Source: a virus
Taxonomy: Duplodnaviria; Heunggongvirae; Uroviricota; Caudoviricetes
DNA: 4,890 nt
IMG/VR virus record: IMGVR_UViG_2606217107_000013
Direction: 5' to 3' (one strand)
The notes beneath the pieces were generated by a model. It ran no database searches, had not been told where the DNA came from, and was given only the letters and a program-made list of their open reading frames with translations. Both the position numbers and the translations under genes were made by a program. Positions within the stretch are counted from its first letter, which is position 1; the number at the start of each line of letters is the position of its first letter. Positions 1,407 to 1,937 of this stretch are shown piece by piece.

Positions 1407-1937
1407 ATGAAGGTGATTCTGGCCACCAGGAACCGCTACCTGGAATATGGCCTGCAGGCGTTACTGAAGGAACACAGTGTGATACTGGCGAGGGAGTTTT
1501 TCCTGCCGGAGAACCGCCGTTATATCCCGGACTTTGATGAATCCTGGCTGATAATCTGTGATACGTTGCTGGGCAGACTGATGCGCTGCATGTTCCAGGG
1601 ACGGCATTTTCTGCAACTGGGTGCGGAATCACTCCGTGATGGCGAACAGATAAGTGATGCCATACGTAACGGTGTGTGGACGTATAACAGCGTTGCCCGT
1701 CCGCTGACGATGTCAGAGATGGTGGTGATGTTTGGTTATGTCTACCGTCAGTCGAGACCCTGTCGCCTTGCCAGTGAAATGGGCATTCACACGAAGACGG
1801 TGAATACCTTTCTGTATACGGGAATGGCGAAAAACGGGCTGTATGGTGTGAGCGTGAAACATCTTGCCTGTGCTGATGGCGGTCCTGCCGGATGCGCAGA
1901 ATCTTCTGATAGTTCAGAAGGTGCAGATGATGAATAA
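1407..1937 (+). CDS. Small atypical LuxR/GerE-family transcriptional regulator: degenerate receiver-like N-terminal domain, C-terminal HTH, acidic tail
   Basis: Start chosen at ATG 1407 (MKVILATRNRY...), which has an AGGAAGG Shine-Dalgarno at 1393-1399 with 7-nt spacing; the in-frame ATG at 1377 has none. The C-terminal segment PLTMSEMVVMF...LASEMGIHTKTVNTFLYTGMAKNGL fits the GerE/LuxR HTH pattern (LT..E..VL...A.G.S..EIA..L.IS.KTV..H..NI..KLG). The N-terminus resembles a receiver fold, but the acidic pair normally after the first beta-strand (ILIVDD) reads ILATRN; a later ICD may correspond to the phospho-acceptor position. The tail ESSDSSEGADDE is acidic. The antisense 244-aa ORF (1375..2109) is His/Ser/Pro/Cys-rich and looks spurious. 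Confidence 0.75.
   Translation: MKVILATRNRYLEYGLQALLKEHSVILAREFFLPENRRYIPDFDESWLIICDTLLGRLMRCMFQGRHFLQLGAESLRDGEQISDAIRNGVWTYNSVARPLTMSEMVVMFGYVYRQSRPCRLASEMGIHTKTVNTFLYTGMAKNGLYGVSVKHLACADGGPAGCAESSDSSEGADDE

Follow-up and report, generated by a model that had tools for sequence, protein, structure and literature searches.

ORF-156, a probable phosphorylation-independent LuxR-type regulator encoded in a mobile adhesin cassette of Escherichia coli

Regulators of the NarL/FixJ type, such as FixJ, RcsB, EvgA, VraR, and DosR, consist of an N-terminal α/β domain of about 120 residues with five strands, followed by a four-helix helix-turn-helix (HTH) of the GerE type. In a group of smaller proteins comprising GadE, DctR, MatA/EcpR, BglJ, and RcsA (about 175-225 aa), an HTH of the LuxR type at the C-terminus is combined with an N-terminal domain that cannot be phosphorylated, and these proteins belong to AT-rich loci silenced by H-NS. 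MatA/EcpR is itself encoded by the first gene of an adhesin operon, which it activates (PMC5651002). Atypical phosphorylation-independent LuxR-type regulators beside adhesin genes are well known, and no new mechanism is proposed for the gene described here. This gene is located at positions 1407 to 1937 on the plus strand of a stretch of Caudoviricetes DNA of 4,890 nucleotides (IMG/VR record IMGVR_UViG_2606217107_000013), to which we refer as the window. Its product belongs to the same family as ORF-156D of phage P-EibD (GenBank AF151675), and we call the family ORF-156. In domain order it corresponds to the NarL/FixJ regulators, and in its small size, the character of its N-terminal domain, and its AT-rich surroundings it resembles the GadE group. 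ORF-156 is most likely a small cytoplasmic transcription regulator encoded by the middle gene of a mobile adhesin cassette, and we assign a probability of roughly 70% to the reading that it is a phosphorylation-independent DNA-binding regulator of the LuxR/GerE type. We regard it as a candidate for a cassette-encoded regulator of Eib-type adhesins and not as a new kind of system. The gene, its start region, and the two domains of its product are:

1407..1937, plus strand: ORF-156-family gene for a probable atypical LuxR-type regulator, 176 aa in this copy (PHROG 6585, E 1.1e-96; 93% identity to ORF-156D)
1393..1399, plus strand: Shine-Dalgarno (SD) sequence AGGAAGG, 7 nt before the ATG, as read from the sequence; an SD-like purine run is kept in other cassettes
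1407..1700, plus strand: N-terminal α/β domain, aa 1-98, built of four strands and four helices; strand 1 is followed by T7-R8-N9 and strand 3 by the invariant D52 (alignment, AlphaFold, Foldseek)
1707..1871, plus strand: probable GerE/LuxR-type four-helix DNA-binding domain, aa 101-155, with the recognition helix 129-142 and the invariant K130-T131-V132 (alignment, AlphaFold, Foldseek, profile)

The full open frame extends from 1377 to 1937 on the plus strand and comprises 186 aa. A start at 1377 was rejected, as it lies inside the tail of the upstream terminator-like element and the N-terminal extension is conserved in no homologue. Because every homologue begins with MKVILAT, which corresponds to the ATG at 1407, this ATG is taken as the start, and the coordinates and the length of 176 aa in the first-pass annotation, a reading made from the sequence alone, were correct. 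That the gene is real is borne out by a family alignment conserved across 157 residues and by Nei-Gojobori dN/dS values of 0.11-0.22 for all pairs of copies with unsaturated dS (dS 0.3-1.6), which reveal purifying selection. The match to the profile of PHROG 6585 ("unknown function") spans residues 1-155 and is called full-length. ORF-156D is 92.9% identical over 156 residues, and in the AF151675 record, as in the window, an adhesin gene (eibD) is followed by an annotated stem-loop, orf-156D, orf-60D, and a gene resembling L0124. The window copy differs from ORF-156D in having 176 instead of 156 aa, which is caused by a 1-bp indel at the stop codon, and the passenger of its adhesin is unrelated to that of EibD. 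The gene has been deposited before without a function and is not newly seen, and the database labels for its relatives ("ORF-156D", "hypothetical protein", "unknown function") include no functional one. In the Eib literature that was searched, which did not include the primary Eib descriptions, a downstream gene or a cassette-encoded regulator is named nowhere.

From profile comparisons and structure prediction we conclude that the LuxR/GerE-type HTH of ORF-156 is real. When the family profile was widened by divergent relatives from an exhaustive search, it matched GerE (1fse) with an E-value of 7e-4; the next matches were VraR, VqmA, and EvgA, and the register was the same throughout. The narrower profile built from 30 close homologues already gave four weak matches in the PDB (E 0.16-0.2), all of them to LuxR-type HTHs and over residues 94-150. 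Relatives found with the family profile at E-values of 1e-43 to 1e-55 bear precomputed GerE or Sigma70_r4_2 domains and are named by NCBI as HTH, LuxR-type, or sigma-factor-like regulators. In addition, paralogues at 31-44% identity reach or come near the Pfam cut-offs of GerE or Sigma70_r4_2 with the same residues. For example, Pfam GerE, with its cut-off of 23.5 bits, gives a plasmid paralogue (36% identity over 153 aa, tblastn E 2e-22) a score of 32.9 bits at the residues equivalent to 98-141. P0074 has 28.4 bits on GerE and P0049 27.7 bits on Sigma70_r4_2, and the paralogue with 44% identity is annotated as a LuxR-family regulator. The AlphaFold2 model, computed with the family alignment as input, has a mean predicted local distance difference test score (pLDDT) of 84.9 and a predicted TM-score (pTM) of 0.80, with pLDDT values of 86-96 in each 10-residue block from 101 to 150. 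The helices predicted for the C-terminal part are 102-113, 118-125, 129-142, and 150-154, the helix after the recognition helix being present. The best 38 PDB matches of the full model in Foldseek are all of the NarL/FixJ type (FixJ, RcsB, EvgA, StyR, LiaR, DesR, VraR, VpsT, and spr1814), with E-values from about 1e-3 and probabilities up to 1.00, and the NarL/FixJ regulators are the best matches of ORF-156 both in whole-model structure and in the PDB sequence-profile comparison. The recognition helix is nearly invariant, K130, T131, and V132 being invariant in the 30 sequences of the ORF-156 clade and V132 also in the wider alignment.

Several results weigh against this assignment. With the window protein as query, hmmscan against Pfam and NCBIfam returned nothing at E ≤ 1, the gathering threshold of Pfam GerE (PF00196) is not reached, and phmmer against the PDB sequences found nothing. 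Only one of the 30 family members reaches GerE at all, with an E-value of 0.056. The evidence for the HTH is thus indirect and consists of transitive homology and predicted structure. The first-pass annotation had proposed a GerE/LuxR-type HTH and had staked it on a profile search; taken at face value the direct Pfam search speaks against the proposal, but the widened profile, the paralogues, and the AlphaFold model speak for it. The HTH is missed in single-sequence Pfam searches because it is too divergent.

The N-terminal domain had been described as receiver-like, which is appropriate for its place in the architecture but only loosely so for its fold, a minimal and generic one. The predicted strands (2-6, 25-27, 46-51, and 67-72) and the helices between them (10-19, 28-31, 53-62, and 79-88) amount to four β-α units in about 95 residues, compared to the five units of the (β-α)5 receiver. 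Response_reg (PF00072) has zero matches in the window protein and in all 30 family members. Modelled alone, residues 1-98 reach a pLDDT of 85, and a Foldseek search with this model gave nothing significant (best E 0.14, TM ≤ 0.49), which argues against a specifically receiver-like structure. The resulting list mixes a designed Rossmann 2x2 fold with the receivers of CpxR, RssB, and FleR, NAD kinase, and the Argonaute MID domain. Strand 1 ends with VILA-T7-R8-N9. Within the ORF-156 clade neither T7 nor N9 varies; across the wider alignment T7 hardly varies, and the residue at position 9 is N, or D in distant relatives. The acidic pair expected after strand 1 is absent and T7-R8 stands in its place, exactly as the first-pass annotation had read it ("TR in place of DD"). 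In addition, the strand 67-72 is followed by G/D-A-E and thus by no Thr or Ser, a fifth strand is missing, and the stretch leading up to the HTH has no conserved Lys. ORF-156 has no acid pocket. Lacking the acidic pair as well as the Thr/Ser and the Lys, the protein is unfit for canonical receiver chemistry. The earlier reading of the acid pocket had not mentioned Asp52, which directly follows the strand 46-51 at the phospho-acceptor position and does not vary within the ORF-156 clade and hardly at all across the wider alignment. It is the position of this Asp alone that agrees with a phospho-acceptor. Kinase genes are listed neither for the cassette nor among the adjoining prophage or plasmid genes in the contexts examined. 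The only histidine kinase seen in these contexts lies beyond a DinI gene and pairs with its own LytTR response regulator. Together, the missing residues and the lack of a linked kinase gene support the phosphorylation-independent control proposed before, and the N-terminal domain, which occupies the place of a receiver, may be a truncated and degenerate one.

ORF-156 is the middle gene of a three-gene cassette, preceded by the gene of an Eib-like trimeric autotransporter and followed by that of a small membrane protein. In the window, the two genes accompanying ORF-156 are:

197..1318, plus strand: Eib-like trimeric autotransporter adhesin of 373 aa, whose passenger is AT-rich and whose YadA anchor is conserved (Pfam YadA_anchor, E 4.4e-16)
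1927..2058, plus strand: third cassette gene, small single-pass membrane protein with a 43-aa core, or 60 aa ("ORF-60") if started at 1876 (PHROG 9340, E 3.4e-30)

The architecture of the cassette is conserved. In every intact cassette examined, ORF-156 is located 82-90 nt downstream of a small YadA-anchor adhesin gene and in the same orientation. Such cassettes are found in 933W-like prophages, in lambda-like prophages after long tail-fibre genes, and on plasmids beside a larger trimeric autotransporter. A diverged branch with 54% identity is found near hpaBC without a recognisable adhesin. Paralogues with 31-39% identity are located directly downstream of giant surface-protein genes of the type I secretion system (T1SS) or repeats-in-toxin (RTX) type (L011-L015, 6001-7014; L033, 3846-4870; L034, 7001-7570; L016, 3239-3808). 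In L011-L015 and L033 a second gene for a GerE-type regulator of 169-170 aa follows about 20-30 nt after the paralogue. Elements of the IS66 and IS110 insertion sequence families flank several of these T1SS/RTX-linked loci. The paralogue with 44% identity follows fimbrial genes on a plasmid. A regulator at the 3' end of adhesin genes thus recurs over three adhesin classes, namely trimeric autotransporters, T1SS/RTX proteins, and chaperone-usher fimbriae.

The ORF-156 family is almost confined to Escherichia coli, where it belongs to mobile elements. A word-indexed search returned 42 clusters, all from E. coli, and one cluster of relatives derives from Citrobacter farmeri. When 1.84 billion representative proteins were searched exhaustively with the profile, 38 matches were obtained, most of which are fragments, and a scan of the GTDB species-representative genomes found two loci, one in Escherichia and one on a 601-bp contig labelled Xanthomonas. 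This contig (L010, NZ_JPLE01000137.1, labelled Xanthomonas pisi) carries a 933W-type ORF-156 remnant with 95% identity to E. coli sequence and almost certainly represents E. coli or phage contamination of the Xanthomonas assembly. Among 5,426 complete E. coli genomes, 441 (about 8%) match the ORF-156 region. In phage 933W (L003, 5638-5993), the small ORF L0123 and the DNA following it keep ORF-156 residues 25-77 (66% identity) and 119-157 (95% identity) while the middle is deleted, and the same broken remnant is present in many Shiga toxin (Stx) phages of O157:H7. Because this remnant persists, the O157:H7 Stx phages must once have carried the cassette. The protein P0072 (611 aa) contains tandem repeats with ten stretches that match the profile, best at profile positions 116-157 (E 2e-6); by their look, these repeats come from the translation of a DNA repeat and not from a regulator.

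The signals that may control the cassette are found upstream of the adhesin gene and in the spacer between the adhesin gene and ORF-156:

52..65, plus strand: RcsAB-box-like motif TAAGGAAATTCCGA, 145 nt upstream of the adhesin ATG, matching TaAGaatatTCctA at 11 of 14 positions and at 6 of the 6 strongly conserved ones
56..93, unstranded: inverted repeat I1, GAAATTCCGAA / TTCGGAATTTC, with 16 nt between the arms; an inverted repeat is found at the same distance in diverged cassettes
123..151, unstranded: inverted repeat I5, ACATCAGAT-N11-ATCTGATGT, a candidate operator or upstream terminator, centred at about -59 in several cassettes
151..179, plus strand: predicted promoter-like site for the adhesin gene, TTGAAC-17-GATAAT, 9 of 12 consensus positions
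1344..1375, plus strand: intrinsic-terminator-like hairpin (CGGCAG...CTGCCG) followed by TTTTT in the spacer between the adhesin gene and ORF-156, conserved in all cassettes compared

The T-run of the spacer element ends 31 nt before the ATG at 1407. In all cassettes compared the hairpin is kept with changes that preserve pairing, the T-runs vary between 3 and 8 nt, and a stem-loop is annotated there in the P-EibD record. The whole arrangement of a gap of 82-90 nt, hairpin, T-run, and SD sequence is conserved in diverged cassettes as well. A consensus scan of the plus strand from 598 to the start codon of ORF-156 found no promoter-like site, so that the earlier statement that there is no obvious promoter in front of the gene stands. 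Expression of ORF-156 by read-through from the adhesin promoter is plausible from this arrangement, and the coupling to adhesin transcription suggested in the first-pass annotation is a reasonable interpretation, although an inferred one.

Upstream of the adhesin gene, blocks resembling footprints are common to diverged cassettes. They include the -10-like hexamer GATAAT with the adjoining TTTGTATACA, and a palindrome extends over this hexamer. The repeat at the I1 position is centred at -114 to -122, and its arms differ between the cassettes (e.g. GAAATTCCGAA/TTCGGAATTTC, ATAAATCCTAAA/TTTTGGATTTAT, and TTCCTAAAAAT/TTTTTTAGGAA in the upstream regions of the window and of L006, L007, and L020). 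A stem-loop is annotated at the equivalent place in the P-EibD record. The changing arms would fit either an RNA or DNA hairpin or a co-evolving dimer operator. The equivalent of I5 in L020 has arms of 15 nt. The RcsAB-like motif is found at the same distance in five cassettes (those of the window, L001, L006, L007, and L020), and a second, inverted copy at about -99 in L006, L007, and L020. The right half of TAAGGAAATTCCGA fits the RcsB half-site wwTTCykA, which has been described together with the RcsAB box consensus TaAGaatatTCctA (PMC3950696). However, the box is absent from L004 and L028, its chance rate is about 0.04 per 300 nt, and it was noticed by inspection after the idea had arisen. 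Thus, the motif is suggestive, a lead and not a result. Instead of operators, the repeats conserved upstream might just as well be terminators insulating the cassette, which likewise counts against a regulatory site at this place. The strict motif TAAG-N5-TCC(T/G)A is also present once in L018, the region upstream of K-12 matA (2165-2178, minus strand), about 330 nt upstream of matA (ecpR) and on the strand of matA. The gene encodes a known RcsB auxiliary, and this occurrence may be due to chance.

How could such a cassette work? In the lysogen, ORF-156 would be transcribed from the adhesin promoter through partial read-through of the hairpin and T-run, and because of this its level would track adhesin transcription. 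In lambdoid phages, late transcription modified by Q reads through terminators after induction, and ORF-156 would then be transcribed on the antiterminated late transcript. A dimer of ORF-156 would bind DNA through its nearly invariant recognition helix without a need for phosphorylation. The likeliest target would be the AT-rich and probably H-NS-silenced region upstream of its own adhesin gene, and since AT-rich DNA is typically silenced by H-NS, positive feedback or anti-silencing would be expected. Host genes tied to the adherent state are possible further targets, and ORF-156 might act together with RcsB like other small LuxR-type auxiliary regulators. Two points speak against a simple switch of this kind. 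Sandt, Hopper and Hill (2002) reportedly found the unlinked ibrAB genes to be necessary for the expression of eib in K-12, and if so, ORF-156 alone would not be sufficient. In addition, because the Stx phages of O157 keep the broken remnant only, ORF-156 is dispensable for the phage. The first-pass annotation had left open whether the gene controls the adhesin, the phage, or host genes. Of these, control of the phage is unlikely, given that the adhesin and regulator pair is also found in lambda-like prophages and on plasmids and that the paralogues follow adhesin genes that are not phage genes.

The target is the point at which several explanations part. ORF-156 might not act on its own cassette but repress opposing host programmes such as flagellar motility when the adhesin is made, which we consider a possibility to be taken seriously but on balance an unlikely one. 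This cross-regulation competes with self-regulation without being exclusive of it. PapX and MrpJ are motility repressors encoded in adhesin clusters and belong to protein families other than the LuxR type. Like ORF-156, PapX, MrpJ, and FmrA are encoded in or at the end of an adhesin cluster so that their level follows the adhesin, and their targets are flagellar genes; the likeness concerns the logic of the gene order only. FmrA, from O island 1 (OI-1) of enterohaemorrhagic E. coli, is an example of such an adhesin-cluster-encoded motility repressor (PMC10877973). The position of the gene at the 3' end of three unrelated adhesin classes, always in the same orientation, and the hairpin in front of it, which resembles a leaky terminator, agree with cross-regulation. 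However, the argument is an analogy of gene order between proteins of which PapX and MrpJ have other folds, and the nearly invariant recognition helix and the promoter motifs shared by the cassettes suit self-regulation equally well. A more specific version of the preferred DNA-binding regulator is that ORF-156, weak alone, forms a heterodimer that redirects RcsB to asymmetric boxes like the RcsAB-like motif, which would link the adhesin, and perhaps genes for motility and capsule, with the Rcs regulon. Size and architecture are as in RcsA, BglJ, GadE, MatA, DctR, TviA, and RmpA. Several of the RcsB auxiliaries are horizontally acquired, their genes are repressed by H-NS, and they act with RcsB mostly independently of its phosphorylation (PMC5651002). 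GadE and DctR share with ORF-156 the T-[KR]-[DN] behind strand 1 and the Asp behind strand 3, and RcsB chains have the top TM-scores (0.40-0.46) among the full-length Foldseek matches. The TAAG-N5-TCC(T/G)A motif agrees with all six strongly conserved RcsAB positions, its right half agrees with the RcsB half-site (PMC3950696), and it recurs at about -145 in the five cassettes and inverted at about -99 in three. Against this stand the reservations given above, that the match is 11 of 14 and post hoc and that two cassettes lack the box. The structural matches to RcsB show no more than the fold shared by the family, and in sequence ORF-156 is not significantly similar to the known auxiliaries. 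A paralogue of ORF-156 gave a weak match over the full architecture to the EcpR model (E 0.005), and in contrast to MatA/EcpR-type auxiliaries the ORF-156 gene is located downstream and not upstream of the adhesin. We hold the RcsB partnership to be doubtful. Direct comparisons with individual members of this group had been tried and rejected as evidence of homology. In hhalign the family gave E-values of 0.08-0.12 against the single sequences of GadE and DctR over short N-terminal stretches, and in hmmsearch GadE, DctR, MatA, YjjQ, and BglJ scored 0-11 bits, none of which is significant. PsrA and PsrB, prophage regulators of the GAD island, were ruled out as LuxR-type kin because they are of the AraC/XylS type according to a review.

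Two further explanations concern the nature of the protein itself. The C-terminal helices could contact RNA polymerase or another factor in the manner of sigma region 4, or the protein could have a phage late-gene function, in place of binding an operator in a sequence-specific manner. The Sigma70_r4_2 scores of the relatives are about equal to their GerE scores, some of the NCBI names read "sigma factor-like", and the gene is located in a phage late region. But the architecture and the best structural matches are those of NarL/FixJ proteins, sigma fragments appearing lower in the Foldseek list (E about 0.05). The cassette is present on plasmids too, paralogues accompany non-phage adhesins, and 933W-type Stx phages hold the broken remnant only, so that a role of this kind seems very improbable. 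Least probable of all, and in our view barely worth entertaining, is a true receiver in which Asp52 is phosphorylated by a host kinase or acetyl phosphate and thereby controls DNA binding. It has in its favour that this Asp is found at the C-terminal end of strand 3 and is conserved as described. The metal-binding acidic pair, the Thr/Ser, the Lys, and the fifth strand and helix are all absent, however, there is neither a Response_reg match nor a cassette-linked kinase gene in the contexts examined, and GadE and DctR keep an Asp at this place and are nevertheless auxiliaries, GadE working with RcsB independently of RcsB phosphorylation (PMC5651002). The preferred phosphorylation-independent DNA-binding regulator can also be extended into a self-contained adhesion switch. 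Here, read-through would set the dose of ORF-156, ORF-156 and RcsB at the RcsAB-like boxes would lift the silencing of the adhesin and reprogramme host surface and motility genes, the ORF-43/60 protein would tether or gate ORF-156 at the membrane, and the superfamily would have been recruited independently behind three adhesin classes on E. coli mobile elements. As a whole this picture is speculative and quite unlikely.

Profile, transitive, and structural evidence agree on a GerE-type protein, and of the receiver features only the position of the Asp is retained. For these reasons, ORF-156 is a divergent addition to the known LuxR-type regulators and not a new kind. Eib-type and related chain-forming adhesins are common in Shiga-toxin-producing E. 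coli that are negative for LEE, the locus of enterocyte effacement, and expression of Eib-type adhesins responds to static growth, oxygen, pH, and temperature (PMC4352079). As a probable LuxR-type regulator, ORF-156 would offer a direct and cheap experimental handle on how prophage- and plasmid-borne adhesins of the Eib/Cla type are switched on. The wider pattern is one of related regulators that follow adhesin genes of three classes on the mobile elements of E. coli.

The window is derived from a 933W-like (Sepvirinae) E. coli prophage, of which it covers part of the late region. It is 96-98% identical to complete E. coli genomes and to phage GER2, and 90% identical to phage 933W from about 2025 onward. 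In annotated relatives the gene order is tail fibre, DUF4376 protein, YadA-type adhesin, a "hypothetical protein" of 156-166 aa, a "hypothetical protein" of 43-60 aa, and the homologues of L0124 and L0125. Phage 933W has no adhesin between L0121/L0122 and L0124 but only the small ORF L0123 with the broken remnant. The stretch from the adhesin to the small ORF is therefore cargo between phage structural genes. It has the properties of a moron, i.e. a cargo cassette, in that it sits between conserved phage genes, is missing from 933W apart from the remnant, and has its own signals (with the promoter being predicted) and a deviant composition. The genes of the cassette are bracketed by hairpins. 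The GC content is 34-41% in the 5' region of the adhesin (windows 1-900), about 55% in the anchor, and about 52% in the flanks. The location of ORF-156 between an adhesin and tail genes and within prophage cargo, as given in the first-pass annotation, is thereby borne out, with the YadA-anchor adhesin on one side and the 933W-type virion and tail genes on the other. Rfam had zero matches across the window. The flanking phage genes are:

2239..3864, plus strand: 933W L0124-like virion protein (PHROG 511, E 2.8e-271)
3861..4890, plus strand: 933W L0125-like tail tip fibre protein, running off the window (Pfam Phage_Tail_Tip, E 4.4e-11)

The adhesin shares 61% identity with EibD in its C-terminal 166 aligned residues. 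It is a mosaic that is EibD-like in the coiled-coil and the anchor only, while the passenger (about residues 30-230) is unrelated and AT-rich. Non-Eib groups have recently been described among the EibG-like adhesins (PMC13534694), and the adhesin of the window may belong to one of these.

At its C-terminus, the window copy of ORF-156 carries a tail that the first-pass annotation had noted as unusual for the family:

1878..1934, plus strand: predicted disordered Ser/Gly/acidic tail, aa 158-176, in this and a few other copies (pLDDT about 34; 1-bp indel)

The acidic tail is present in this copy, but it is not a family feature. In the close relatives L001, GER2, and P-EibD the frame ends with GGT GCC TGA after 156 aa. 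At this site the window has one base fewer, so that it is without the TGA and continues for 19 further codons up to a TAA overlapping the next gene's start. The 1-bp indel is seen in the alignment of the 3' end with L001, L002, and L007. Tails elsewhere in the family vary in length and sequence and are often rich in Ser, Gly, and acidic residues (e.g. in the 175-aa forms), and the largest family clusters are those of the 156-157-aa forms. Judged from these alignments, the tail is a variable appendage.

The protein encoded by the third gene has a basic N-terminus and one predicted hydrophobic helix (MMNKERCRTIGRKRYTTGAMCFMLFVWLGGVLALVATAAVVMQ). The gene comes after the regulator in the cassettes compared and is annotated in L001, L002, and L007, its family PHROG 9340 is of unknown function, and its DNA is conserved above the surrounding sequence among diverged cassettes. 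In the window copy it overlaps the extended tail of the regulator out of frame, and the stop codon of the regulator overlaps the start of the third gene in the 175-aa and 176-aa forms. The cassette is closed by a further hairpin:

2064..2082, unstranded: GC-rich hairpin GGGGAGCAACATGCTCCCC closing the cassette, with a T-run on the minus strand only, conserved in L001, L002, L007, and L020

Because the T-run is on the minus strand only, a leftward transcript starting between about 2240 and 2090 would end at this hairpin. Just upstream of it, at about 2090-2195, there is a minus-strand ORF of 23 codons (MEFAKIAIGITATECCYDILDKT) in a region that is common to phage 933W.

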